A DNA stretch of 12,843 nt from an uncultured Deferribacteres bacterium (GTDB taxonomy: Bacteria > Zhuqueibacterota > Zhuqueibacteria > Zhuqueibacterales > Geothermadaptataceae), in assembly GCA_964014485.1 (NCBI GenBank), contig CAXHAT010000212.1, forward strand, positions 1 through 12,843. The letters are read 5' to 3'. This document shows, piece by piece, positions 1-12,702 of this stretch. The notes under the pieces were generated by a model that was given only the letters and a program-made list of their open reading frames with translations, ran no database searches and was not told the origin of the DNA. Both the position numbers and the translations under genes were made by a program. The first letter of the stretch is position 1. Each line of letters starts with the position of its first letter.

Positions 1-320
1 CGCCCGCTGAGATCGTCGCGCTGCCGCCCGCGCAAGTCGATGCGTCGGCCACGGTGACGCTTGGATTTGAAACGACTGTGACTGTTGCACTGCCCGCAGA
101 AGTCCCGGCAAGATTGACGTCACTCAGCGAAGTAATGGTATAAACGGTCGTGTTCGTCGGGCTAACGGTGCGCATCACCGGGCTGGCGGTTACGCCGTTT
201 TGAACCGCGCCGTCCGACCAAGTAATGTTCCATGGAGAGGCGCCGGTCAATGCAGCAGAGATTGTCGTCGAGCCGCCGGAGCAAATCGTCGCGTCGCCGC
301 TAACGGTCGCAGTAGGCGGC
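1..320 (-). repeat. Start of an Ig-like repeat array (TIC-x-G-x-S type)
   Basis: PTATVSGDATICSGGSTTISAALTGASPWNITWSDG...TVSPTNTTVYTIT...SATVTV followed by PSVTVADASTCAGGSATIS; resembles the Ig-like repeats of large FCB-group secreted proteins. The second copy is cut by the window edge. Confidence 0.65.
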
Positions 321-1759
321 GTGAAATCATCATCGGTGATCGTGGCCGTCACCATCGTCGTCGCTCCGACTGTTGCGTTCACCAATCCGCCGGTATTGAT
401 CGAAACTTCGACAGTTTCGTCGCCTTCAACATCGGTATCATCGACGCCGGTCAATGTCGTAACGCCGCTCGGACTGCCGGCGGCAATTGAAATGGTTGTC
501 ACTGAAGCAGTGTAATCATCTGATGCGCCAGGCCCGGCCGCGCCGCCGCCAAAAGTGAGCGGCACGGTGACGGGCAGCCCGGAAACCGCGCTCAAGGTTG
601 CGGTCACGGTGGCCGTCCCCGCGTTTTCATCGAAAGGACTGCCCGAAAGCGACAAGCTCACTGTTGGCGTTGGATCGTTGTCATTTATATCGGTGCTCGC
701 GGAAGTCGTCGCTCCCAACGTCAAGCCGGAGGAAGGATTGCTGATCGTGAACGTCGCGGTTTCATTGTTTTCGTCCAGCGCGTCGTCGAAAACCGCTGCC
801 GTGACTGATCCGCTGGTTGCGCCGTCGGCAATGGTGATTTGCGTGGGCAGCGCCCCGGAAAAATCCACCGCCGTCGCCGCGCCGCTCAGAGCAAGATCGA
901 CTGTTTGTGCGCCGCTTACAGCGCCCCCGGCAGTCGCCGTAATCGTGATATTGCCGCCGTTCTCGGCAATGCTTGGCGTCGGGCTGACGCTCACGTTGAC
1001 CGTTTGGGTGGGACTAAAGTTCGCGGCGTTGATATTCATGGCCATGTGGATGATGGCTTCACCATTTGTTGTGAAGTTGCTGGTAACGCTTGTCGCCCCA
1101 TCCTGCGTGGTTGTGGTGTAAGTTCCCTCCCCGCCACTATCAATTGACTGACTCCCCGTACTGTGAACAACTGTTTTGCCTGCGCCGAGGGTCGTTGTCA
1201 CAGTGGCCGTGTTATGAAATGCGTCAAACACCGCGAACACAAGGTCACCGTCTTCGCTGGTGACTGTCAGGGTGGAATTAATTCCGGCTGCGTTCTGTTC
1301 CTCCCGGTTCATTGCGCTGCTGGTTGGCGTTGTTTGATCCACATTTGAATAGGCAACCGCCGCCATAAATTTTTCATCAGGCACTCCTGCCCCGGGCGTC
1401 ATGACTATATCCCCGGTTACAGCGGAACCGGTCCCCAATTCCAGGATATAAAAAGCATCGCTGGCAAAACCGTCCTGCTCAAACGCCACCTGGGTCATCG
1501 CTGTCCCCCCGAACGTACAATTTGTGATGCTCGTTGAGTTTGTATGCCCGACAGAGACGACAAGAAGTCGATCGGTTCCGGCTGGAACGGTGAAGCTAGA
1601 CAATGTGTTGCTGGCGCCATATTGGGATGCTGGAGTCCCCAACTGGGTAACTGCTGACGGGACTGCCATTGCTGAAGTCGCACAGGCGACTATAAGTGAA
1701 AGAGCGGTCAAAATGGAACGTCCTTTCAAGAATCGTTGAAATCTATTTTTCTTTTTCAT
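1..1759 (-). CDS. Secreted modular surface/adhesin-like protein (N-terminal beta domain, 2 Calx-beta domains, Ig-like repeats); 3'-truncated by the window edge
   Basis: Missing from the ORF track because it has no stop in the window. Hand translation from ATG 1759 is open for 586 codons: MKKKNRFQRFLKGRSILTALSLIVACATSAMA-VPSAV... (basic n-region, hydrophobic core, AMA cleavage site), with AAGGA Shine-Dalgarno upstream. An alternative in-frame ATG lies at 1777. Confidence 0.93.
   Translation of the reverse strand, partial: MKKKNRFQRFLKGRSILTALSLIVACATSAMAVPSAVTQLGTPASQYGASNTLSSFTVPAGTDRLLVVSVGHTNSTSITNCTFGGTAMTQVAFEQDGFASDAFYILELGTGSAVTGDIVMTPGAGVPDEKFMAAVAYSNVDQTTPTSSAMNREEQNAAGINSTLTVTSEDGDLVFAVFDAFHNTATVTTTLGAGKTVVHSTGSQSIDSGGEGTYTTTTQDGATSVTSNFTTNGEAIIHMAMNINAANFSPTQTVNVSVSPTPSIAENGGNITITATAGGAVSGAQTVDLALSGAATAVDFSGALPTQITIADGATSGSVTAAVFDDALDENNETATFTISNPSSGLTLGATTSASTDINDNDPTPTVSLSLSGSPFDENAGTATVTATLSAVSGLPVTVPLTFGGGAAGPGASDDYTASVTTISIAAGSPSGVTTLTGVDDTDVEGDETVEVSINTGGLVNATVGATTMVTATITDDDFTPPTATVSGDATICSGGSTTISAALTGASPWNITWSDGAVQNGVTASPVMRTVSPTNTTVYTITSLSDVNLAGTSAGSATVTVVSNPSVTVADASTCAGGSATISAG
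325..1005 (-). repeat. Two tandem Calx-beta domains
   Basis: Unit 1: ...SIAENGGNITIT...ITIADGATSGSVTAAVFDDALDENNETATFTISNP...TDINDND. Unit 2: ...PFDENAGTATVT...DDYT...ISIAAGSPSGVTTLTGVDDTDVEGDETVEVSI...ATITDDD. Both show the Calx-beta DD-x-x-x-E-x-x-ET and I-x-D-x-D signatures. Boundaries approximate. Confidence 0.85.
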
Positions 1760-1955
1760 GCTTATTCCTTTTGCCATGAAGTGTTTGGCCGAAACAAATT
1801 GTCAGCTCAATTATGCAGCAACTCAACCGACGTTGATTTTATCATTACGACCGTATTATCCTGCGATGATCGTCTTCCAAATGTCCATCCTGAGAAGGAA
1901 CCGCAGATGGTTTCACGTAAGTGTTTCTTGCCTCCTCAATTTCATCGCGCGGTGA

Positions 1956-2729
1956 TTATTCGTCTTCTTCAGAGGAGCTTTGAAAACGCCAGTTGAGAAT
2001 TTTGTGCATCTGGCAGGCCCGGCCTGTCGAAGCCACAAAGCCAACAAACGCTTTACCGTCTTCCAGCGCCAACTGTGTTGATAGTTCAACGTCCACGGTT
2101 AATACTGGTGTGTTGAAGTCGTTGAGAAATATGTCAAGCGTCCCTGCTTCATAGTTAATTTTGACCGTATGCACTGAGCCGTCGTTTAGATCGGCAATTC
2201 GGCTTGCGACCCCAAGCCGTGCATTCAGCTCGGTAGGTGAATTCGATGAAGTACGAAGACTGTGAACAGCGATATGGTTGCTGTTGGGATCAGCTTCTCC
2301 CGTTCTGAAAAAATCAAACTCAATAGCAATACTGTTTGAAATCCCTGCATAGCCCAACCCGTCTCCGCCACGGCCAACCGCTCTTGTATTGCCATTATGG
2401 ATCAAAAAAGCCATACCTTCTCCGGCCACCCTCCGCGAGCGCAAGATCTGCAGCTGAAATGTCGTCGAAAAGCCATCCTGAACTGTCTGTTTTGCATTGA
2501 ACCATACCGCCCCTTTCTGGTTTTCAGCATCAGCGGTAATTCGCATCTCGCCATCTGATATTCCGGCGTCACCAACTAAGACTAATCCGTCGGAAGAACT
2601 GAAGTCAGAGAAAGCTATTTGCGCCTGAGCCGCTAGCGGCAGCGCAATCAAGCATCCCAGAAGTGATAACTGCTCTCCAAGTTTGCGCACTAATCTGATT
2701 ACTGAGAACGTGGTTGTCATTTTTTTCAT
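1956..2729 (-). CDS. Secreted L-type (legume-like / ConA-fold) lectin domain protein
   Basis: 257-aa ORF; AAGGAG upstream of ATG 2729; signal peptide ending ALPLAAQA-Q; legume-lectin motifs QKGAVWF, GFSTTF, GEGMAF (cf. ADGxAF), GGDGLGY, IAIEFD, DPNSNHIAV, HTVKINY, FVGFVASTG, HKILNWRF. Confidence 0.9.
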   Translation of the reverse strand: MKKMTTTFSVIRLVRKLGEQLSLLGCLIALPLAAQAQIAFSDFSSSDGLVLVGDAGISDGEMRITADAENQKGAVWFNAKQTVQDGFSTTFQLQILRSRRVAGEGMAFLIHNGNTRAVGRGGDGLGYAGISNSIAIEFDFFRTGEADPNSNHIAVHSLRTSSNSPTELNARLGVASRIADLNDGSVHTVKINYEAGTLDIFLNDFNTPVLTVDVELSTQLALEDGKAFVGFVASTGRACQMHKILNWRFQSSSEEDE

Positions 2730-2874: not shown

Positions 2875-3162
2875 TCACTTCATCAACAACAACTTCTTCT
2901 GGGCGGTGAATTGTTGCCCGACTTTAATCGTATACAAATACAATCCGCTGGAAACCCGCTGACCTGAATCGTCACGCGCATCCCAGGTCACTTTGTGCGC
3001 GCCGGGAGCGTAATCGCCGGAAACCAGTGTTCGCACCAACTGTCCCGCGCTGTTGTAAATGTTCAGCGACACATAACCTGCATCGACCAGATCAAACTGA
3101 ATCGTCGTGGTCGGGTTGAACGGATTCGGATAATTCTGATGCAAAGCGAAATCCGTCGGCAA
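2875..3162 (-). other. C-terminal secretion/sorting domain (T9SS type A-like / FlgD Ig-like)
   Basis: LPTDFALHQNYPNPFNPTTTIQFDL...IYNSAGQLVRTLV...WDARDDSGQRVSSGLYLY...KKLLLMK; matches the YPNP...IY...G...SGxY...K pattern. Confidence 0.88.
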
Positions 3163-4773
3163 AGCCTGTTCATTGTTTATTGCCAATTGATCATTGAAGG
3201 CAGCGGCCTTCGGATTCTGGCAACGATCCAACGCCGAACAATAGTCTTCCCACGCCTTACGGAAGTCCTTGATCGCGTCGCCGAAGTAAGGGCCGTCAGG
3301 ATCATTGTATTCTTCATCGCCGTCCGCAAGATCATTGTCACCGTCTTCGAGATCGTCAGCCACATCGCCGGAGGGCGTCGGGTCACATTCGAAGACTTCC
3401 TCTCGCTTTTCTTCGGCGACGCTGCGCGCCAGATCAGCCAGCGCGGCGGCGATGGAATCCGTGCCTTCCATTTCTTCCCTCGCTTCTTCCAAAGCGTCAG
3501 CCGCGTCGCGCAGGGCGTTCAGCATGTCTTCGATCTCATCTCCTTCGGCAAAGCCAAGCGCTTCTTCGAGGGCGTTCTTTGCGTCTTCCAGAGGCTCAAT
3601 CGCATCAGGCGGCGTTCCTGAGTCGTCAATCAATGCCTGCAGTTCTGCACACTGTTGCGTGATGACCTCCGTTGAGGTCAAAGGGATCACGATCTTAAAG
3701 ACATTGTCTGTACTCGATCCTGTCACGAAAACATGACCAGGGGCGCCAACCGCAAGACTAAGCGTATTTTCAAGTCCATTGCCTCCGCCGTCGCCGGAAG
3801 CGTCGATGATCTGCGTAATGGTTCCGTCAGGGGCGATCTTGAACGCATTATCGGAAGTCTTACCCGTAACGAAGACGTTGCCAAAAGCGTCGACGGCTAA
3901 GCCCGTCGCCAGTTGCAGACTATTGCCTGCGCCATCGCCGGCGGCGTCAATTATTTCCGTAATCGCACCGCCGGGCGTGATCTTAAAAACGTTATGCGAA
4001 AAATGCCCCGAGACATACACGTTGCCCGCAGCATCGACAGCGACGTCGTGAGGGCCGATCAGGGTATTCCCGGCGCCGTCGCCTGCGGCGTCGATGATTT
4101 CGGTAATAGCGCCGCCGGGCGTAATTTTGAAGACATTGCTGGAAGCCAGTCCAGCCACAAAAACGTTTCCGAAAGCGTCTACAGCAACGCCATAAGCATG
4201 AACAAGCGTGTTGCTGTTGCCATCCCCTGTCGCGTCAATGATCTCGGTAATGACGCCATCGGGCGTGATCTTAAAGGCGTTCGGGGTCAGGCCAGTTACG
4301 TAGACGTTCCCGGACGCATCTACGGCAACGTCCTTAGGTGCTAAAAGAGTATTTCCGCTTCCGTCGCCAGCGGCGTCAATGATCTGAGTGATTACGCCGC
4401 CGGGCGTAATCTTGAAAACATTGTTGGTAATTTCCCCTGCTACGTAGACATTACCGGAAGCGTCTACGGCTACACCGCGAGGAAATACCAGAAAATTACC
4501 GCCGCCGTCGCCCGTCACATCAATAAGCTCTGTAATCGTACCGCCGGGCGTGATTTTAAAAACGTTAGAGCTACCGCTTCCGGACACGTAAACGTTACCG
4601 GATCCGTCCACGACGATGCTGAATTCGTCCGGACCTTCGAATCCGTTTCCTGCGCCGTCACCGGTTATGTCAATGATTTCAGTGATGGTCTGTCCCGCTG
4701 CAGAATTGAGAAACAAACCCATCGTGAACACAACACTGCAAGTAAGCGTCAACAGTTGTTTAACTCTCCTCAT
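2875..4773 (-). CDS. Secreted NHL/SBBP-like beta-propeller protein with acidic helical domain and T9SS-type-A/FlgD-Ig-like CTD
   Basis: Start reassigned from 4833 to ATG 4773 (AAGGAG 6 nt upstream; MRRVKQLLTLTCSVVFTMGLFLNSAAG-Q signal peptide); 632 aa; seven repeats with the GVAVDxxGNVYV NHL-type core; C-terminal FALHQNYPNPFNP...SGLYLY...KKLLLMK. Confidence 0.92.
   Translation of the reverse strand: MRRVKQLLTLTCSVVFTMGLFLNSAAGQTITEIIDITGDGAGNGFEGPDEFSIVVDGSGNVYVSGSGSSNVFKITPGGTITELIDVTGDGGGNFLVFPRGVAVDASGNVYVAGEITNNVFKITPGGVITQIIDAAGDGSGNTLLAPKDVAVDASGNVYVTGLTPNAFKITPDGVITEIIDATGDGNSNTLVHAYGVAVDAFGNVFVAGLASSNVFKITPGGAITEIIDAAGDGAGNTLIGPHDVAVDAAGNVYVSGHFSHNVFKITPGGAITEIIDAAGDGAGNSLQLATGLAVDAFGNVFVTGKTSDNAFKIAPDGTITQIIDASGDGGGNGLENTLSLAVGAPGHVFVTGSSTDNVFKIVIPLTSTEVITQQCAELQALIDDSGTPPDAIEPLEDAKNALEEALGFAEGDEIEDMLNALRDAADALEEAREEMEGTDSIAAALADLARSVAEEKREEVFECDPTPSGDVADDLEDGDNDLADGDEEYNDPDGPYFGDAIKDFRKAWEDYCSALDRCQNPKAAAFNDQLAINNEQALPTDFALHQNYPNPFNPTTTIQFDLVDAGYVSLNIYNSAGQLVRTLVSGDYAPGAHKVTWDARDDSGQRVSSGLYLYTIKVGQQFTAQKKLLLMK
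3691..4689 (-). repeat. Seven ~48-aa NHL-like repeats (probable 7-bladed propeller)
   Basis: Consensus xITEIIDxxGDGxGNxLxxPxxVAVDAxGNVYVxGxxSxNVFKITPGG, seven copies counted in the translation; ~144-bp periodicity also visible in the DNA. Confidence 0.9.
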
Positions 4774-4839
4774 GGTCTTCTCCTTCTCTGAATGAATTTT
4801 CGATACTGTCGCTTTATCAAACGTCGGACTCAAAACGGT

Positions 4840-5127
4840 TTACTTCATTAATAAGAGCTTTTTCTGCGCCGAAAACTGTTGACCGATTTTGATCGTGTAA
4901 AAATAAAGTCCGCTCGCCACACGAACACCCGACTCATCTCTTGCATCCCAAACAACTTTGTGTGCGCCGGGAGCGAAATTGCCGGAAACAAGTATGCGCA
5001 CGAGTCGTCCCGTGCTGTTGTAAATATTGAGCGAGACATGCCCCGCTTTCGGCAAATCAAATTGAATCGTGGTGTTCGGATTGAACGGGTTCGGATAGTT
5101 TTGATGCAGCGCGAATTTGGTCGGCGT
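4840..5127 (-). other. C-terminal secretion/sorting domain (T9SS type A-like / FlgD Ig-like)
   Basis: PTKFALHQNYPNPFNPNTTIQFDL...IYNSTGRLVRILV...WDARDESGVRVASGLYFY...KKLLLMK, preceded by a Ser/Thr-rich linker. Confidence 0.88.
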
Positions 5128-8100
5128 AAACTGTGAACTGTAAACTGAAGATGCATCTTCGCTTGCAGTTAACGGTTCACTGTTTACAGTTGACCGCTTA
5201 CTGACCGCCGGACCAGAATAAACTTCCAGTTCGTTAACGGCGAGACTTGATTGATTAAAGCCGGTTGCGAGCAGACGAACGTAGCGCGCCGTGGTTTGCG
5301 TGAAGGTAAATTCCTGATTTCCAGAAGCGCCGCTCGTGGTCGAATAGATCGTGAACCAGTTAACGTCATCATCGGAAGCTTGGAATTCATAGCTCGTCGC
5401 AAAGCGCGAACTGTTCCACCGGACTATCGCGCGGCCAACCGGCTGCGGCGAACCCAAATCAATGCGCAGCCACTGGTTGCTGCTTACGTTTCTCGTTCCC
5501 CAAGCCGTACTCTCGTTACCATCGTTGCCGTTTGAAGCGACAAAGGATGAGGCGACGCTTGACGCAGTCGCAGGTTGGTTCAGGGCCAAATTGGTGTTGG
5601 GATCAACGCCGGAATCTTCAGTCGTCGCTGAGGCTTCGTTCGAATAGCCCGAATCGCCGACGCCGTTGCTCGCGCGGACGCGATAAGTGTAGGTCGTACT
5701 CGCGCTCAAGCCCGTGTCGTCATAGTTGGTCACGTTAGCGCCGACGGTTGCGATTTCGGCAAAATTGCCGTCGCCAGCGTGACGCTCGATTTTGAAATTA
5801 TCTTCGTTGTTTGCGTTGTCCGTCCAACTCAAATCGATTTGGGAAGAACCGTTCGCCGTCGCGGTCAAACCTGACGGATCGGCGGGCGGCGGGGGCGGAT
5901 CGTCCGTCGTTGCCGAAGCGTCGTTCGAGTAGCCCGAATTGCCTGCGCCATTGCCCGCTCTCACACGATAGGCGTAGGTCGTGCTCGCGCTCAAGCCCGT
6001 GTCGTCGTAGCTGGTCACATTCGCGCCGACGGTTGCGATTTCGGCGAAATTGCCGTCGCCCGCGTGGCGCTCGATTTTGAAATTGTCTTCGTTGTTGGCG
6101 TTGTCCGTCCAACTCAAATCGATTTGGGATGCGCCATTCGTCGTCGCGATCAAACCACTTGGTGCGGCGGGCGGCGGGGGCGGCGCATCCGTGGTGGCCG
6201 CAGCTTCATTGGAGTAGCCCGAATTGCCGACGCCGTTGCTCGCGCGGACGCGATAAGCGTAGGTCGTGCTCGCGCTCAAGCCCGTGTCGTTGTAGCTCGT
6301 CACATTTGCGCTAACCGTGGCGATTTCGGCGAAATTGCCGTCACCGGCGTGTCGCTCGATTTTGAAATTATCCTCGTTATTTGCATTGTCCATCCAACTC
6401 AAATCGATCTGTGAAGCACCGTTGGCCGTCGCAGTCAAGCCGCTCGGAGCGGCGGGCGGTTGCGGCGGCGCGTCCGTGGTTGCACTGGCCGTATTCGAAT
6501 AGTTCGAATTCCCGGCGCCGTTGTAAGCGCGCACGCGGAAGGTGTAGGTTGTGCTCGCGTTCAAACTAGTGCTGCTGAAACTCGTCACGTTCGCCCCGAC
6601 GGTCGCGATCTCGGCGAAATTGCCGTCGCCGGAATGACGTTCAATGCGGAAGCCGTCCTCGTTGTTCGAATTATCCGTCCAGCTTAAATCGATTTGCGAA
6701 ACGCCGTTTGCACTGGCTGACAAGGCCGTCGGCGCAGCGGGGGGCGTGGGCGTTCCGCCGCCGGAGCAGCCATAAACTTCGAATTCGTTGATGCGATAGG
6801 TCGATTTGTTGTTTTGCGTCATGTGCAAGCGCACGTAGCGCGCGGAAGCGGCGGCGAAGGTATGCTCGTCGATTCCTTTGTCGTTCTTTGTCGCGCTCAC
6901 CACAACCGTCCAGTTCGCATCGTCGGTCGAATGCTGAATTTCATAAACTTCCGCGTAATCCTTGCTCTCCCAATTGATCACCACGCTGTCCACGGTTACG
7001 ATTTCACCAAAATCGACTTTGAGCCACTCAGGCACGCCGGACTGCACGTCGTCGCTGCGCCAGTAGGAATCGACGTCACCGTCATTGGTGTTTGAAGGCG
7101 GATCGTCCGGGTCTTGTGAAGAAGCCGTCATCGTGTTGCCCGAGGCCAGATTTTCGCCGGGCGTGCAATTCACCGGCGCCGCGTCGGTTGTTGCGGAAGC
7201 CTCGTTGGAGAAGCCGGAGTCGCCCTCGTTGTTAAAAGCGAAAACGCGATAAGTGTAAGTCGTTTCGGCATTCAGGCCAATGTCGTTGTAACTCGCAACG
7301 TCAGCGCCCAAAGTTGCGATTTCAGCAAAATTCCCGTCGCCGCTGTGACGCTGAACTTTGAAGCCGTCCTCGTTGTTTGAATTGTCGCTCCAGCTTAAAT
7401 CAATTTGCGAAGAACCGTTGGCCGTTGCGGTGAGCCCGCTCGGATCAGCAGGCGCGGTCGGCGGATCGTCCGTCGTCGCGGCGGCTTCGTTGGAATAGCC
7501 CGAATCGCCGTTGCCGTTGCTGGCGCGCACGCGATAGGTGTACGTTGTACTGGCGCTCAAGCCGGTATTGCTGTAGCCGGTCACATTCGCGCCGACCGTC
7601 GCGATTTCGGCAAAATTGCCGTCGCCGGAATGACGTTCGATTTTGAAGTTCGACTCGTCGGAAGCATTGTCCGTCCACGCAAGATCAATCTGTGAAACGC
7701 CGTTCGCCGTCGCGGTTAAAGCGGAGGGATCGGCGGGGGGCGGCGGGTCGTTCGTCGTTGCCGAAGCTTCGTTGGAATAGCCGGAATCCCCAGCGTCGTT
7801 GGTTGCGCGCACGCGATAAGTGTAGGTTGTGCTTGCGCTCAAACCCGTGTCGTTATAGCCGGTCACGTCCGCGCCGATTGTTGTAATTTCCGCGAAATTA
7901 CCGTCCCCGGCATGGCGCTCAATTTTGAAACCGGTTTCGTTGTTGGCGTTGTCCGTCCAACTCAAATCGATTTGGGATGCGCCATTCGCTGTCGCAGTCA
8001 AACTACTTGGTGCGGCGGGCGGTGGCGGAGGTGCGTCCGTCGTTGCGGCGGCTTCGTTCGAATAGCCGGAGTCGCCGACGCCGTTGCTGGCGCGCACGCG

Positions 8101-11100
8101 ATAAGTGTAGGTCGTGCTCGCGCTCAAGCCCGTGTCGTTGTAACTGACCACGTTCGCACCAACGGTTGCGATTTCAGCAAAATTGCCGTCGCCCGCATGA
8201 CGCTCGATTTTGAAATTATCTTCATTATTTGAATTATCCGTCCACGAAAGATCGATTTGCGATGCGCCGTTCGCCGTTGCAGTCAGGGTTGCGGGAGCGG
8301 CGGGCGGCGTTGGCGCTGCGTCGGTCGTGGCCGAAGCTTCGTTGGAATAATTCGAATCGCCGTTGCCGTTCGTGGCGCGCACGCGATAAGTGTAGCTCGT
8401 CGAGGCGCTCAATCCGGTGTTGTTGTAGCTCGTGATGTTCGCGGCGGTAACGGCGATCTCGACAAAATTGCCGTCGCCGGAATGGCGCTCGATTTTGAAG
8501 CCGGTTTCATTGGAAGAATTGTCCGTCCAGCTCAAATCGATTTGCGAAGCGCTGTTCGCCGCTGCGGTCAAACCGGACGGCGCGGCGGGCGGCGGCGGAT
8601 CGGCCGTCGTTGCAACGGCGACGTTGGAATAGCCTGAATGGCCTGCGCCGTTGCTGGCGCGCACACGATAATTATACGTCGTCGAGGCGCTCAATCCCGT
8701 ATCGTTAAAATTCGTTACACCCGCTCCAACACTCGCAATTTCGACGTAATTGCCGTCGCCGTCGTGGCGTTCGATTTTGAAGCTGGTTTCATTCAACGAA
8801 TTGTCCGTCCAGGAAAGATCGATTTGTGACGTGCCGTTTGCTGTTGCAAATAAGCCGGACGGCGCCGCGGGCGGTTGCGGTGAACCGCCGGCGTTATCGC
8901 AGCCGTACGTTTCCACTTCCGCGATCTTGTAGGTCGATTTCCGATTTTGCGTCATATAAATGCGCAAGTACTGGCCGGTCGTTCGCGTAAAAACATGGGT
9001 TTCCACGCCTTCGTCGTTCTTGGAAGCGACGAATGTCGTCGTCCAATTCACGTCGTCATCGGACATTTGAACTTCGTAAGCTTCAGCATAATCCTTGTCC
9101 TGCCAGTCAATGATCACACTATCAATTTGCACGAAGCTGCCGTAATCAACTTTAAGCCACTCGGCCACGCCGGTTTGAACATCGTCACTGCGCCAGAGCG
9201 TGCCGTCGTCGCCGTCGGTCGCGTTTTCAGGATTGTCCGGCGCATCGGTTGAAAAAGCCGTCGTCGCTTTGTTCAAAGCGAGATTAACGTCCTGGTTGAC
9301 GCACTCATCCGTTGTCGTCGCGGAAGCTGCGTTCGAAAAATCCGAGTCGCCGGCATTGCTTGTCGCGACGACGCGATAGGTGTAAGTCGAGGCCGGTGCA
9401 AGCCCGACGTCACTATAAGACGTCACATTTGCCGCTACGACAACAACGGTTGCGAAATTGCCGTCGCCGGAATGGCGTTCGAGTCGAAAGCCTGTTTCAT
9501 CGAAAGAATTGTCCGTCCAGGCAAGATCGATTTGATACGCGCCGAACTCGTTCGCCGTGAGCGCGCTTGGCGCAAGCGGCGGCGGAATCACCTGAACTTC
9601 ATCCGCGCCAATGTCGACGCGACCGTCGATGATGCGAATATCGCCGTCAAGGTCGGTTTCGTCGGCGTCTGCGACAAAAGTTGGATCACCGGCATTCACA
9701 GCGGGCGATGTTTGCGAGACATGGAAATCGGCGTTGGCCGCGTCGTCAAAAAGAGGATCGTTAAAGACTGAATTCGCGTCCTGCCCGGAGCCGGATTGGA
9801 AATCGCTAAAATTGCCGTACCAGGTGCTCTGCCAGGTAAATTGCGCGCTGCCGGCGCCCGATTCCGTGTACCAAAGGTTGTAGTCGAGCGTGTTGTTGAC
9901 GTTGCCGCCTTCGGAATAGAGCAGCACGTTTTGGCCGGTGCTGTAGAAAATGTTGTTGCGCAGGTCGTTGTTTTGGGCGAACTGAATCCAGACCTCGCCG
10001 ACGCCTTCGTTCAAAACGTCGTTTTTGTAGAGAACATTGTTGGTAAAAGAGCAGTTTTCGACCGAGCCAACCGTCGCGTCGTAGCCTCCAAAAACCAGCC
10101 CGGCCTTGTCGTTGTTGTAGAGCACATTGTTGCGAACAGTGATATTGCTGGTGATCAAACCCGCGTTTTCCGCGCCGACTTCGACGCCAAAATCGCATTC
10201 ATAAACGGTATTGTTTTCGATCACGATGTCCTTGCCGCCGTCGACGTAAATCCCGCCCGCGTAGCCGCCGGTTCCGTTTTCGCGCGCGCGATAAACCGTG
10301 TTGCCGCGACAAATTCCGTTGCGCGCCACTTTGGTTTGATCCGGTTGCAGCCAGGTTTCGCCGCCGATGAAATCAATGCCGATGTTGTTGACGTCGCGCA
10401 CGATGTTGTTGGTCACCTCAAAATCGGTGACGTTGCCGTTAATTGTGAGCGCTTCGCTCGGCAGAGGTTCGCAGTCGTAAATTTCGTTGCCGTCGATAAT
10501 GATGTTCGAAATCGGGTCAAACGCCCCGCCATAAATCGTAATCCCCATGGCGTCCGTTCCGCGAATGTCGTGGATGACGTTGTTGCGAAATTCAATGTGC
10601 GAACCGGAGCCGACCATGCGAAAACCGGAGCCGTCACTCACGCCTGTGTTATTTCGAATTTCAAAGCCGTGAATTTTTATATAGCTCTTGGAGTCGATAA
10701 AAATCATGTTGTCGCCGACCACGCCCGTGCCGTCGAGAATCGGGAATTCGTTGGCGTATGCGGAAAGAACGATGTGGCCGTTAACTGCGTCGCCGCCGGT
10801 CGGGAAAATGAGTTTTTCAAAATAGGGCGAGGCTTTTTCGCGCACGGCAATCGAATCGCCGGGCTGCGCCGCGTTCAAAGCTGCTTGAATCGTGGTGAAA
10901 TCACCGCCGGTTTCCGCGACAATGTAAGTTTGCCCAAAAGTCGTCGCCGAAGCTTCATTCGTCGGATCGGAATTGCCCGCTGCGTTGACGGCGTGAACGC
11001 GGTAGGTGTAGGTCGTGCCGCGCATCAGCCCGGAATCGGTGAATGAAATAAAATCCGCTCCGGTTGTGGCGACTTCCGCAAAATTTCCGTCCCCGCTGTG

Positions 11101-12513
11101 GCGCTCGATACTGTAGCCGGTCTCGTCGGTCGCGTTGTCCTTCCAGGCCAGGTCGATTGATGAAACGGTCGCCGTCGTCGCCGTCAAACCCGTCGGCGCG
11201 GCGGGAGCGCCCACGCCTTTGATGATGGTGAAGTAGTCGAGCGTATTGCCGAGCTCGTCGATATAAGTCACGTCCGCACGTCCGCCGTCAATGTCCAGTA
11301 CGACGGAGCCGAGTTCCAGAACGGAATAATACATCGCCGGATGATCCAGCGGCGCGCTGCTCGTTTGCCCGCCGCTGCCCGCAACGATATAAACCGCACC
11401 CTGACGCGCGCCAGGGCCAAGCGTCGCCTTGGTGTAAGCGCCCGTGCCGTCTTCGCGTCCGTCGCCGTCGTCGAGCTTGTGTTCAGGCAAAAGACTCACG
11501 GAATCGCCGTAGTGGCCGTCGAGCAAGTACGAGCGTTCGTAGGAATGGCTGTGCCCGGTAAAAACAAGATCAACGCCGCCGTTTTCCAGAATCGGCAAAG
11601 CGTTTTCACGCATCTGGATCAGTCTGTTTTCCGAATCTGAATCGTGCGACCCTTTCGAATATGGCGGATGATGCCAGAAGGCAACGACCCAGTCCAGCGT
11701 GTTGGCGGCGAGATCGTTTTCAAGCCAGGTCAGCATCGCGTCATTGACGCCGCGGGGAATGTCTTCCGAGTTCAGGCAAACAAAGTGAATATTGGCGTAG
11801 TTGAAAGAATAATACGCTTCCGTTCCGCTGGCAAAACCGCCGGATTCCGCATTGCGCGGCAATGAAAAAATATCATAAAAAGGCCCTGATTCCGTCGGCG
11901 ACTCCGCACTCAAGCCGTCGTGATTACCGAAGGCGGGCCATAACACGGATTTGCGCAGCATTTCAGGAAAAATATCGAACACCGCTGATTGATATTCGCT
12001 GTCATTGCCGACATTGTAAGCGTTATCGCCGAGCATAACCCAAAGATTCGTATGCGTCGCGCCAGTGTAATTTTCATAAGCGTCGCGCACATCCATGACG
12101 TCCTGATCCGCCGTACCCGAATCGCCGATGATCCAAATTCGCGACGCCTGCCGCGTGCCGTCGGCGGGATTGGTTTCGAAAAAATAGCTGCTGTCCGAAG
12201 CCAGCGTCGCCGTCGTCGTGCCAATGGAATAATAATAAACCGTGTTTGGCGAGAGCCCCGTGAGCTCGATTTCGTGCTCAGTCGTGCTGGTCAAATCGTC
12301 GACCGTCAAGTTCAGATTGAGTTCATCCGTTCCATACTGCACCCGACTGTTTACGGCCGTGTCCGTGCGCCAACGCACGATGACGCTTGTCGGCGTTCCG
12401 GTTTGCAAGTATGGTCCGCGCGTCACGGTTTGTGCGTGGACGTTTTCCAGATTTGGAGCGGTTAACGAAAAAGCGGCGGCAAAAGCGGCAAAGACTCGGA
12501 GTTTGTTCAGCAT
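4840..12513 (-). CDS. Giant secreted multidomain protein: purple acid phosphatase - FN3 - beta-helix - FN3 - F5/8C - 6xFN3 - F5/8C - 4xFN3 - F5/8C - CTD
   Basis: Uninterrupted ORF. Start preferred at ATG 12513 (GAGGAAGG immediately upstream; MLNKLRVFAAFAAAFSLTAPNLENVHA-Q signal peptide), giving 2557 aa rather than the 2587 aa from 12603. Domain motifs are listed in the sub-features. Confidence 0.95.
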   Translation of the reverse strand: MLNKLRVFAAFAAAFSLTAPNLENVHAQTVTRGPYLQTGTPTSVIVRWRTDTAVNSRVQYGTDELNLNLTVDDLTSTTEHEIELTGLSPNTVYYYSIGTTTATLASDSSYFFETNPADGTRQASRIWIIGDSGTADQDVMDVRDAYENYTGATHTNLWVMLGDNAYNVGNDSEYQSAVFDIFPEMLRKSVLWPAFGNHDGLSAESPTESGPFYDIFSLPRNAESGGFASGTEAYYSFNYANIHFVCLNSEDIPRGVNDAMLTWLENDLAANTLDWVVAFWHHPPYSKGSHDSDSENRLIQMRENALPILENGGVDLVFTGHSHSYERSYLLDGHYGDSVSLLPEHKLDDGDGREDGTGAYTKATLGPGARQGAVYIVAGSGGQTSSAPLDHPAMYYSVLELGSVVLDIDGGRADVTYIDELGNTLDYFTIIKGVGAPAAPTGLTATTATVSSIDLAWKDNATDETGYSIERHSGDGNFAEVATTGADFISFTDSGLMRGTTYTYRVHAVNAAGNSDPTNEASATTFGQTYIVAETGGDFTTIQAALNAAQPGDSIAVREKASPYFEKLIFPTGGDAVNGHIVLSAYANEFPILDGTGVVGDNMIFIDSKSYIKIHGFEIRNNTGVSDGSGFRMVGSGSHIEFRNNVIHDIRGTDAMGITIYGGAFDPISNIIIDGNEIYDCEPLPSEALTINGNVTDFEVTNNIVRDVNNIGIDFIGGETWLQPDQTKVARNGICRGNTVYRARENGTGGYAGGIYVDGGKDIVIENNTVYECDFGVEVGAENAGLITSNITVRNNVLYNNDKAGLVFGGYDATVGSVENCSFTNNVLYKNDVLNEGVGEVWIQFAQNNDLRNNIFYSTGQNVLLYSEGGNVNNTLDYNLWYTESGAGSAQFTWQSTWYGNFSDFQSGSGQDANSVFNDPLFDDAANADFHVSQTSPAVNAGDPTFVADADETDLDGDIRIIDGRVDIGADEVQVIPPPLAPSALTANEFGAYQIDLAWTDNSFDETGFRLERHSGDGNFATVVVVAANVTSYSDVGLAPASTYTYRVVATSNAGDSDFSNAASATTTDECVNQDVNLALNKATTAFSTDAPDNPENATDGDDGTLWRSDDVQTGVAEWLKVDYGSFVQIDSVIIDWQDKDYAEAYEVQMSDDDVNWTTTFVASKNDEGVETHVFTRTTGQYLRIYMTQNRKSTYKIAEVETYGCDNAGGSPQPPAAPSGLFATANGTSQIDLSWTDNSLNETSFKIERHDGDGNYVEIASVGAGVTNFNDTGLSASTTYNYRVRASNGAGHSGYSNVAVATTADPPPPAAPSGLTAAANSASQIDLSWTDNSSNETGFKIERHSGDGNFVEIAVTAANITSYNNTGLSASTSYTYRVRATNGNGDSNYSNEASATTDAAPTPPAAPATLTATANGASQIDLSWTDNSNNEDNFKIERHAGDGNFAEIATVGANVVSYNDTGLSASTTYTYRVRASNGVGDSGYSNEAAATTDAPPPPPAAPSSLTATANGASQIDLSWTDNANNETGFKIERHAGDGNFAEITTIGADVTGYNDTGLSASTTYTYRVRATNDAGDSGYSNEASATTNDPPPPADPSALTATANGVSQIDLAWTDNASDESNFKIERHSGDGNFAEIATVGANVTGYSNTGLSASTTYTYRVRASNGNGDSGYSNEAAATTDDPPTAPADPSGLTATANGSSQIDLSWSDNSNNEDGFKVQRHSGDGNFAEIATLGADVASYNDIGLNAETTYTYRVFAFNNEGDSGFSNEASATTDAAPVNCTPGENLASGNTMTASSQDPDDPPSNTNDGDVDSYWRSDDVQSGVPEWLKVDFGEIVTVDSVVINWESKDYAEVYEIQHSTDDANWTVVVSATKNDKGIDEHTFAAASARYVRLHMTQNNKSTYRINEFEVYGCSGGGTPTPPAAPTALSASANGVSQIDLSWTDNSNNEDGFRIERHSGDGNFAEIATVGANVTSFSSTSLNASTTYTFRVRAYNGAGNSNYSNTASATTDAPPQPPAAPSGLTATANGASQIDLSWMDNANNEDNFKIERHAGDGNFAEIATVSANVTSYNDTGLSASTTYAYRVRASNGVGNSGYSNEAAATTDAPPPPPAAPSGLIATTNGASQIDLSWTDNANNEDNFKIERHAGDGNFAEIATVGANVTSYDDTGLSASTTYAYRVRAGNGAGNSGYSNDASATTDDPPPPPADPSGLTATANGSSQIDLSWTDNANNEDNFKIERHAGDGNFAEIATVGANVTNYDDTGLSASTTYTYRVRASNGVGDSGYSNEASATTEDSGVDPNTNLALNQPATASSVASSFVASNGNDGNESTAWGTRNVSSNQWLRIDLGSPQPVGRAIVRWNSSRFATSYEFQASDDDVNWFTIYSTTSGASGNQEFTFTQTTARYVRLLATGFNQSSLAVNELEVYSGPAVSKRSTVNSEPLTASEDASSVYSSQFTPTKFALHQNYPNPFNPNTTIQFDLPKAGHVSLNIYNSTGRLVRILVSGNFAPGAHKVVWDARDESGVRVASGLYFYTIKIGQQFSAQKKLLLMK
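5212..5595 (-). other. F5/8 type C domain 3
   Basis: NLALNQPATASS...NDGNESTAW...QWLRIDLG...YEFQASDDDVNW...ARYVRLL...VNELEVY. Confidence 0.9.
5620..6745 (-). repeat. Four tandem fibronectin type III repeats (FN3 9-12)
   Basis: Same unit as the upstream block; copies 10-12 are nearly identical. Two further single copies lie at ~10939-11208 and ~9313-9585. Confidence 0.95.
6766..7167 (-). other. F5/8 type C domain 2
   Basis: NLASGNTMTASS...NDGDVDSYWRS...EWLKVDFG...YEIQHSTDDANWT...ARYVRLHM...INEFEVYG; Cys at each end. Confidence 0.9.
7186..8877 (-). repeat. Six tandem fibronectin type III repeats (FN3 3-8)
   Basis: ~94-aa units PAAPSGLTATANGASQIDLSWTDN...FKIERHxGDGNF...GLSASTTYTYRVRAxN...SNEASATT joined by Pro-rich linkers; ~280-bp DNA periodicity. 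Confidence 0.95.
8899..9303 (-). other. F5/8 type C (discoidin/CBM32-like) domain 1
   Basis: NLALNKATTAFS...NATDGDDGTLWRS...EWLKVDYG...YEVQMSDDDVNWT...QYLRIYM...IAEVETYG; Cys at each end. Confidence 0.9.
9595..10935 (-). other. Right-handed parallel beta-helix (pectin-lyase-like fold) with C-terminal cap
   Basis: N-cap FTTIQAALNAAQPGDSIAVR; asparagine-ladder coils (IEFRNNVIHD, IIIDGNEIYD, FEVTNNIVRD, IVIENNTVYE, ITVRNNVLYN); C-cap DPLF...DFHVSQTSPAVNAG...DLDGDIR...VDIGADE. Confidence 0.9.
11221..12430 (-). other. Purple acid phosphatase module (N-terminal FN3-like domain + calcineurin-like metallophosphoesterase)
   Basis: All five PAP metal-ligand motifs in order: GDSG (DxG), GDNAY (GDxxY, 12016-12030), GNHD (11917-11928), VAFWHHP (VxxH-like), GHSH (11545-11556); preceded by an RGPYLQ...HEIELTGLSPNTVYYY FN3-like domain. 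Confidence 0.92.
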
Positions 12514-12702
12514 GACCTTCCTCGGCGTCGGTTCTTGTCGGTTTCCGTGTTGACGTACAGATATTCCGGCTGCGGGTACAACGTACAGATTGATCGCGCG
12601 CATTCAGCGGCGACGGTTCTTATAAAGCAGGGAAATTGATTTTGAAAACAGGTTCCGTTCTTGGAAGGATTAAATGCGAGACGCTTCCTTGCGCATCATT
12701 TA

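Follow-up and report, generated by a model that had tools for sequence, protein, structure and literature searches.

A mosaic type IX secretion protein of an uncultured Deferribacteres bacterium joins a predicted purple acid phosphatase to a beta-helix of an uncharacterised family

A contig of an uncultured Deferribacteres bacterium (GenBank CAXHAT010000212.1, assembly GCA_964014485.1; all 12,843 nucleotides of it are referred to below as the window) carries on its minus strand a very large gene in which a purple acid phosphatase (PAP) domain is followed, after one FN3 domain, by a right-handed parallel beta-helix. The analysis described here indicates that the gene probably encodes a mosaic scavenging protein of roughly 270 kDa that would possess two independent catalytic modules, be docked on glycans and be held at the cell surface. 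The architecture is new, yet it is one variant of a known habit of building mosaic proteins for type IX secretion (the T9SS), and the two domains seem to have been combined in a single instance of domain shuffling and not to form a conserved two-in-one enzyme. The initial annotation of the window had placed the fusion at 9595-12513 (minus strand) and had taken it for a candidate bifunctional enzyme degrading phosphorylated glycans. These coordinates correspond to residues 31-1003 of a single uninterrupted open reading frame (ORF) that occupies window positions 4840..12603 of the minus strand, stop included, and comprises 2587 amino acids when counted from the first ATG. The likely start is Met31 at position 12513, because a typical Sec signal peptide follows it and because the database copy of the protein (P0258) begins there; the protein then has 2557 residues. 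P0258 is encoded on a separate contig of 49995 bases and is identical to the window protein at 2556 of 2557 residues. Based on Pfam, NCBIfam and motif counts, the order of domains is signal peptide, PAP, FN3, a beta-helix of 447 residues, FN3, CBM32, six FN3, CBM32, four FN3, CBM32 and a T9SS tail, with Pfam reporting 12 stretches of fn3, Beta_helix at E 1.6e-13 and three stretches of F5_F8_type_C (E 7e-60). Much of what had been read from the letters thus holds, namely the intact PAP active site with the tyrosine of GDNAY, the single FN3 between PAP and beta-helix, and the length of the latter, which had been put at about 440 residues. Also present are the export tag and the three domains resembling CBM32, but they lie outside 9595-12513, at 4843-9306 of the minus strand, and the 12 FN3 domains were absent from that first reading.

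The putative Sec signal peptide (residues 31-57; 12433..12513, minus strand, as are all coordinates of the ORF below) was recognized by inspection from its positive start, hydrophobic core and A-x-A cleavage site, in addition to the start of P0258 at Met31. It precedes the two parts of the phosphatase, an N-terminal FN3-like domain (residues 58-150; 12154..12432) and a catalytic metallophosphoesterase domain (residues 151-470; 11194..12153). Membership in the PAP family was judged from the succession of PF16656 and PF00149 and from the motifs GDxG, GDxxY, GNH(D/E), VxxH and GHxH. Pur_ac_phosph_N (PF16656) matched at 68-142 with 132.3 bits (cut-off 30, E 9.3e-39) and Metallophos (PF00149) at 155-355 with 53.4 bits (cut-off 21.5, E 6e-14), and a pattern search found all five motifs, i.e. 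GDSG (D161), GDNAY (D193 and Y196), GNHD (N227), WHH (H311) and GHSH (H351 and H353). The seven bracketed residues, the tyrosine of GDxxY included, are the candidate metal ligands and presumably correspond one by one to those of kidney bean PAP. GDSG, GDNAY, WHH and GHSH were also aligned by phmmer to solved PAPs, including 6git, which we take to be a wheat phytase-type PAP, while GNHD fell outside the printed alignment blocks and rests on the pattern search. All 15 matches that phmmer returned from the solved structures were PAPs, the best being 6git (E 1.9e-19), with 1kbp at 1.5e-10. By every sequence criterion, the domain is a predicted member of the PAP family. The FN3 that links it to the beta-helix (FN3 number 1, residues 471-556; 10936..11193) was delimited by Pfam and motif counts.

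The second module (residues 557-1003; 9595..10935) was defined by a structural model, by fold matches and by conservation. AlphaFold2, supplied with a 50-member family alignment, returned a right-handed parallel beta-helix with a mean predicted local distance difference test score (pLDDT) of 96.6. In Foldseek, GH136 lacto-N-biosidases ranked first (8.4e-12), followed by PL9 Pel9A and GH120 XylC, over a range reaching 7e-08, and VIA-align gave Z scores of 27-35 against dozens of beta-helix epimerases, lyases, hydrolases and tailspikes, among which no row stands out (AlgE4, 2pyg, 34.6; Pel9A, 29.4; LnbX, 28.7 with 406 aligned residues). Across the 50 members, which share 39-60% identity, E717 and D788 are invariant (E166 and D237 in domain numbering), and D744, R761, E796, E808 and E812 (D193, R210, E245, E257 and E261 of the domain) are at least 90% conserved. 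The four acidic motifs singled out by the initial annotation are found in the translation and hold E717, D744, D788, E808 and E812. In the model, four coils in a row carry E717, D744, D788 and E808 in their first strands; the active groove of beta-helix enzymes usually lies at that strand face, and the conserved acidic residues therefore map to what would be the usual active groove.

The remainder of the protein appears to serve binding and export. FN3 number 2 (residues 1004-1100; 9304..9594), assigned by Pfam and motif counts, is colinear with the corresponding part of a shorter metagenomic homologue (P0004, see below). It is followed by a first CBM32-like F5/8 type C domain (about residues 1100-1235; 8899..9306; PF00754/PF22633), six tandem FN3 domains (about residues 1241-1812; 7168..8883), a second CBM32-like domain (about residues 1813-1945; 6769..7167; PF00754, best stretch 1825-1935), four more FN3 domains in tandem (about residues 1946-2335; 5599..6768; Pfam and motif counts, as for the six before) and a third CBM32-like domain (about residues 2336-2475; 5179..5598; PF22633, best stretch 2359-2444). 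PF00754 and PF22633 were above cut-off, with matches in three stretches and totals of 201.2 and 161.2 bits. The C-terminus (residues 2503-2587; 4843..5097) matches the NCBIfam T9SS type A sorting domain TIGR04183 with 29.4 bits against a cut-off of 23, and Pfam places at 2503-2583 both FlgD_ig (40.7 bits) and Por_Secre_tail (26.2 bits, just below the cut-off of 27). SprA, the translocon of the T9SS, is encoded in the same genome (872 bits summed, cut-off 200), as is a PorV-like protein (247.9 bits, just below the cut-off of 250).

An assembly made of 465 contigs and very rich in FN3 repeats, together with the shortness of the window (12843 bases), could raise the suspicion that two genes had been joined artificially via similar FN3 repeats. 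This is, however, extremely improbable. At the DNA level, the junction FN3 that separates PAP from beta-helix shows no more than 72% identity to any other FN3 in the genome, and its longest run of identical bases with any sequence elsewhere in the genome does not exceed 22; a Logan contig from run X1, 1216 bases long, which is labelled marine metagenome and may be the source sample, covers 10103-11318 without difference, from the beta-helix through the FN3 into the PAP; and P0258 provides a second record of the same protein, bar one residue, on its far longer contig. Runs X2 and X3 cover parts of the stretch, with no record extending at least 31 bases to both sides of either domain junction. 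None of the data sets listed for the stretch is of RNA.

Searches made from both sides suggest that the fusion is nearly unique. From the side of the beta-helix, 256 homologues and 80 loci were fetched, and from the side of the PAP, the best 120 proteins were listed for each length class. None of the 256 homologues contained the PAP catalytic domain, the top spurious score being 32 bits. Matches of 23-32 bits to the PAP query that phmmer gave in P0004, P0018 and P0187 were attributed to FN3-like segments; Pfam finds no Metallophos in P0004 or P0018. With tblastn, a PAP-like stretch was found within 10 kb in 1 of the 80 loci (L023:21091-21294); it represents the PAP N-terminal domain at 50% identity over 68 residues, lies about 10 kb downstream and is cut by the locus end. 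The best 120 near-length PAP proteins (535-1703 residues) included none with a beta-helix Pfam domain and covered 42-57% of the 973-residue query, i.e. at most the PAP plus FN3. Among the best 120 long ones (1422-4528 residues), both domains occur only in P0258, the window's own protein, and in P0289, whose beta-helix is 27% identical and lies about 700 residues downstream of the PAP with other domains between. Within its own genome, the beta-helix is single-copy and confined to the mosaic gene, and it was found at E<=1e-20 in 0 of 30 relatives from the family, order and class (0 of 28 without G016 and G023, two relatives flagged unpublished, with and without which the counts are given). No described enzyme with this architecture was found in the literature, the matching titles and abstracts being irrelevant, which agrees with the statement of the initial annotation that none is known; nor was a described T9SS cargo joining a PAP with a beta-helix found among the parts of the literature available. 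By their titles, the papers found on PAP and polysaccharide lyases are plant, fungal or proteomic, and those found on PAP and FN3 in bacteria include none about a bacterial PAP-FN3.

The beta-helix belongs to a large family, for which 856 clusters match at E<=1e-30 and, at the looser threshold of E<=0.001, 6978 cluster representatives. Members come from Binatia, Myxococcota-type metagenome-assembled genomes, Lentisphaerae, Verrucomicrobiota, Planctomycetota, Gemmatimonadota, Acidobacteriota, Bacteroidota, Chloroflexota and cultured Paenibacillus and Cohnella, the last two providing the nearest cultured homologues found (40-43% identity). Those encountered bore no functional names beyond automatic ones. 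Bacillus subtilis YwoF, to which the domain had initially been likened, appears in the papers found as a putative pectate lyase or beta-helix repeat protein and no more; the Bacillus subtilis control genome gave a Beta_helix family match, with no locus given. Reading by eye the Pfam annotation of the 120 longer homologues listed, we noted as partners GH26 (4), GH8 (2), GH9 (2) and GH5 (1), and in addition GH114-associated domains (5), CBM32 (3), T9SS tails (8) as well as PD40, FG-GAP and Ig arrays; PF00149 or PF16656 was present in none of them. In 13 of 21 Bacillota loci and in one Anaerolineae locus (14 of the 80 fetched), the beta-helix gene ends a conserved operon with the order regulator, sugar ABC binding protein, two permeases, GH4, PfkB kinase and secreted beta-helix (e.g. 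L074:3172-11461, and further in L062, L066, L067, L070, L071, L073, L075, L077, L078, L079, L083 and L084). The GH4 protein exceeds the NCBIfam cut-off for the alpha-galactosidase subfamily (498.6 vs 486 bits), and the Paenibacillus beta-helix homologue carries a signal peptide. A secreted depolymerase feeding an importer is the usual layout for such an operon. The sugar-uptake/alpha-galactosidase operon of Paenibacillus and other Bacilli supports a role of the family as glycan depolymerases, and, taken with the GH26 fusions and the CBM32 of galactose type, it hints that the polysaccharides carry galactose, which should be regarded as a lead and not as a result. In the contexts examined, whether fusion partners or operon, nothing involves phosphate. 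The closest relatives of the window beta-helix are stand-alone proteins of the type signal/beta-helix/FN3/CBM32/T9SS. One of them, P0004 (902 residues; signal/beta-helix/FN3/FN3/CBM32/T9SS), is colinear with residues 557-1240 of the window protein, with 58% identity over 548 columns and, in the FN3 plus CBM32 stretch, 38% over 232 columns.

On the side of the PAP-FN3 unit, 7677 of 8000 scored candidates in the near-length class matched the 973-residue query at E<=0.001. Among the close PAP homologues is P0439, whose source is named as a candidate division KSB1 bacterium, and the organism of the window probably belongs to that candidate phylum. In the best 120 long PAP proteins (Pfam annotation read by eye), its partners include M23 peptidase (11), phytase (2) and many PKD, cadherin and Ig arrays, while a beta-helix or lyase domain occurs in 5, with the window's own copy counted. 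Judged from these matches, PAP-FN3 is a widespread, promiscuous and evidently mobile module. The genome of the window contains seven matches to the PAP catalytic domain at E<=1e-30. Besides the window protein, they are distributed over an ORF of 2266 residues on contig C92 (18881-25678, locus L009), whose PAP is 75% identical to that of the window over the catalytic part and 72% with FN3; one of 1316 residues on C271 (433-4380, L010), with a PAP that is 65% identical; an open frame of 3391 residues on C95 (2-10174, L011) that runs off the contig end and holds two PAPs, 22 FN3 stretches and two CBM32, with no further catalytic domain recognised; a protein of 503 residues on C178, made of a PAP plus a T9SS tail; and one of 418 residues on C154. 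Four of these proteins, i.e. those of the window, C92, C271 and C95, combine PAP, FN3 arrays and CBM32. Some PAP at E<=1e-30 is present in 16 of the 30 relatives (15 of 28 without G016 and G023). The PAP copies of the window and C92 look like recent duplicates that may have recombined with other modules, because PAPs at least 60% identical are confined among the relatives to two, G013 and G014, where they lie in ORFs of 798-1315 residues that have the PAP-FN3 core in common with C271. As a separate observation, the C271 ORF has, ahead of its PAP, an unrecognised domain of about 160 residues (63-219) with no Pfam match, which recurs in two or three copies, at 42-44% identity, in PAP proteins of 1314-1315 residues in G013 and G014 (L137 and L138).

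The layout of the C92 protein is a heparinase II-like domain (about 810 residues), an FN3 array, PAP, FN3, two CBM32 and a T9SS tail. The first 810 residues have stand-alone homologues of about 800-1000 residues in 27 of the 28 relatives from its family and order (25 of 26 without G016 and G023), and a stand-alone paralogue exists in the same genome (C311). The kinship with heparinase II was settled by a profile of 26 relatives (unpublished genomes excluded), which matched heparinase II 2fuq at E 3.3e-29, and by the predicted structure (pLDDT 88.9), which Foldseek matched to heparinase II at 3e-34 with TM scores of 0.71-0.75, the next family being thirteen orders of magnitude behind; the protein atlas, which gave 0.96 to heparinase II/III clusters, and NCBIfam, which reached HepB at 9e-10 but far under its cut-off, agree with this. 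Other comparisons found nothing: Pfam Hepar_II_III_C was not matched at E<=1 in the genome family search, phmmer and BLASTP found nothing below E 0.3 among the genome's own heparinase-family proteins, and single-sequence phmmer against PDB gave no match. The genome has thus twice joined PAP-FN3 to a different, otherwise stand-alone, glycan-depolymerase-like module accompanied by CBM32.

The reading that we favour for the window protein is as follows. Exported first through the Sec pathway and next through the T9SS, the protein would probably be tethered to the cell surface, where the three CBM32 domains would dock it on galactose-type glycans or glycan-rich particles and the 12 FN3 spacers would give it reach. 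Its N-terminal module is predicted to act as a binuclear-metal phosphatase of the purple acid type and its second module as a secreted glycan depolymerase of an uncharacterised family. The beta-helix would have a groove, with E717, D744, D788, E808 and E812 along it, in which polysaccharide is cut, and the phosphatase would free phosphate from whichever phosphoesters lie close, so that sugars and phosphate would both be made beside the cell by two co-localised enzymes, neither being mechanistically dependent on the other. As to its origin, the gene may have arisen by recent lineage-specific shuffling in which a duplicated PAP-FN3 unit was set before a signal/beta-helix/FN3/CBM32/T9SS cassette, such as exists as a stand-alone protein in other phyla, with the FN3 and CBM32 repeats presumably expanding afterwards.

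Several observations weigh against this picture. A purely independent role of the two modules is challenged by the nearest PAP paralogue, that of C92, which is likewise fused to a glycan-lyase-like domain, and by PAPs of other organisms whose fusion partners are Chondroitinase_B (P0291) or, in P0335, Alginate_lyase plus CBM96; such PAP/lyase fusions could mean that the function of the phosphatase is truly coupled to glycans that are polyanionic or phosphorylated. As to catalysis, the adhesin PfbA (Z 29.3) and NosD (Z 32.9) score as high as enzymes in VIA-align, and the modelled beta-helix fold alone cannot separate an enzyme from a binding protein. What the initial annotation had proposed is a coupled, bifunctional enzyme whose substrates would be phosphorylated polymers (phosphomannan, polymers like teichoic acids, capsule or exopolysaccharide bearing phosphate): the beta-helix would depolymerise, the PAP would strip the phosphate so exposed, and the fusion would report, as a Rosetta stone, the substrate class of the beta-helix family. 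Both sites look intact, a single FN3 separates them, and the lyase fusions of C92, P0291 and P0335, the latter two independent like that of the distant beta-helix in P0289, fit such an enzyme. We nevertheless consider it unlikely. The Rosetta-stone argument finds mostly no support, because the beta-helix family is almost never PAP-linked (0 of 256 homologues, none in the best 120 near-length PAP proteins, 1 of 80 loci within 10 kb and one distant case in P0289) and is itself absent from the 30 relatives; other genomes thus essentially lack the pairing of the two domains. Besides, the nearest beta-helix relatives have no PAP, and the Paenibacillus operon points to the use of neutral sugars (alpha-galactosidase, sugar kinase, ABC importer) and includes no phosphatase. 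What partly survives of the proposal is a possible general link between phosphatases and glycan depolymerases, as seen with the heparinase II-like, Chondroitinase_B-like and Alginate_lyase partners, and not one specific to this beta-helix family. For that general link, the double fusion in this genome and the Chondroitinase_B and Alginate_lyase cases are the best evidence, to be weighed against the many other partners, since the 11 M23 and 2 phytase fusions and the many PKD and Ig arrays stand beside only 5 beta-helix or lyase cases in the best 120 long PAP proteins, and PAP-FN3 goes with M23, PKD arrays, phytase and others as often as, or oftener than, with lyase-like modules. A broader version, in which PAP-FN3, along with CBMs, has been recruited repeatedly to depolymerases of polyanionic glycans (the present beta-helix, the heparinase II-like lyase of C92 and the chondroitinase-B-like and alginate-lyase modules) and so forms an unrecognised class of surface enzymes that dismantle phosphorylated or phosphodiester-bridged polymers and harvest their phosphate, the window protein being truly bifunctional, also seems doubtful to us.

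If the beta-helix instead served for binding or as a scaffold, as in NosD or beta-helix adhesins, what remains would be a phosphatase anchored at the surface and equipped with several parts that bind glycans. The Z scores of NosD and PfbA would suit this, as would the facts that no known catalytic constellation was mapped, that sequence matches to solved enzymes fall mainly in the N-terminal cap and that the window domain has no Pel9A-like match at E<=0.1 in the local Pfam copy. It is made improbable by the acidic residues on neighbouring coils, which vary little or not at all among 50 diverse members, by the repeated fusions with glycoside hydrolase domains and by the 13 Bacillota loci in which the beta-helix is the sole secreted protein of a sugar-uptake operon, as fits a depolymerase feeding a transporter. 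A further possibility is a tool for degrading the matrix of others' biofilms or detritus, in which the beta-helix would cut exopolysaccharide and the main action of the PAP would be that of a phosphodiesterase or nuclease, directed at extracellular DNA or at polymers linked by phosphodiesters. Some enzymes of the PAP family do degrade DNA, as is reported for plant PPD1 (PMC4062093); one source names the homologue P0384 a cyclic-AMP phosphodiesterase; and the window PAP matches NCBIfam SpdA (2',3'-cyclic-nucleotide phosphodiesterase) weakly at E 1.7e-4. Such names are automatic annotations, however, the SpdA match lies far under its cut-off (21 vs 400 bits), and sequence cannot tell a monoesterase from a diesterase, so that we regard this use of the protein as very improbable.

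If the ordinary reading, i.e. that of two co-localised scavenging enzymes, holds, the protein exemplifies how some uncultured bacteria shuffle modules into very large surface-exposed multi-enzyme proteins, which bear on the joint mineralisation of organic phosphorus and polysaccharides on particles. Two by-products of the analysis may be more useful than the fusion. The beta-helix family is large, widespread, secreted and uncharacterised and is thus a candidate for a new family of carbohydrate-active enzymes, for which the operon of cultured Paenibacillus offers a testable handle; this family and its operon are more promising than the fusion itself. PAP-FN3, in turn, is a very common bacterial module that has scarcely been characterised biochemically.

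Three genes lie downstream of the mosaic ORF on the same strand, and all look surface-located or secreted and glycan- or calcium-binding: an SBBP/NHL beta-propeller protein with a T9SS tail (window 2875-4833, minus strand; 652 residues), a legume-lectin-like protein (1956-2729, minus strand; 257 residues) and a protein of Calx-beta/LapA-like type whose gene continues past the window edge (2-1777, minus strand). The genome measures 8.4 Mb, compared with 4.0-5.9 Mb in nine relatives of the same family, and has many giant ORFs with FN3 arrays (1280 to 4072 residues), which suggests a lineage-specific expansion of mosaic surface proteins.

Compared with known systems, the phosphatase part shares with solved PAPs (6git, kidney bean 1kbp/4dhl and mammalian TRAP 1qfc/1ute) the N-terminal FN3-like domain, the metallophosphoesterase core and the five motifs. 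It differs from them in that the sequence matches reach E values of only 1.9e-19 to 8e-07 and in that it is bacterial, is followed by a conserved FN3 and resides inside a T9SS protein of 2557 residues. The beta-helix has the same fold as the carbohydrate-active enzymes LnbX (5gqc), Pel9A (1ru4), XylC (3vst), PL6 lyases and AlgE4 (2pyg), and its N-terminal cap motif is common to GH120, PL6 and PL9, but it is only 12-22% identical to these enzymes, the likeness in sequence being mostly restricted to the cap. GH136 is the top Foldseek match, with 406 residues aligned at 22% identity, whereas the sequence profile gives just E 1.4e-06 in the N-terminal part. For PL9, 1ru4 aligns structurally at Z 29.4 with 20% identity; many family members carry the Pel9A-like PF22842 in precomputed annotation, although the window domain itself gives the null result mentioned above. 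The profile comparison with GH120 reaches E 2.6e-22, yet 63.6 of its 82 bits derive from the N-terminal cap, and a weak 14.6-bit hidden Markov model alignment of the catalytic region puts XylC D382, presumably the nucleophile, on a conserved Gly of the window family.

At the level of whole proteins, the metagenomic P0002, P0004 and P0018 belong to the same beta-helix family (65%, 61% and 45% identity) and show the same succession, with FN3 (Calx-beta in P0002) after the beta-helix, then the F5/8 type C domain and the T9SS tail; in them, the beta-helix comes straight after the signal peptide, there is no phosphatase and the length is 900-960 residues as opposed to 2557. The C92 sister protein resembles that of the window in its PAP, FN3 array, two CBM32, T9SS tail and glycan-lyase-like module, while the partner is a heparinase II-like alpha/alpha-toroid plus beta-sandwich and no beta-helix, and the PAP is situated in the middle of the protein. 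Large T9SS cargo proteins of Bacteroidota and the FCB group consist of a Sec signal, catalytic and binding modules, Ig or FN3 spacers and a type A C-terminal sorting domain. The window protein, with its Sec signal, modules, spacers and type A sorting domain and with a translocon encoded in the same genome, is built in the same way.

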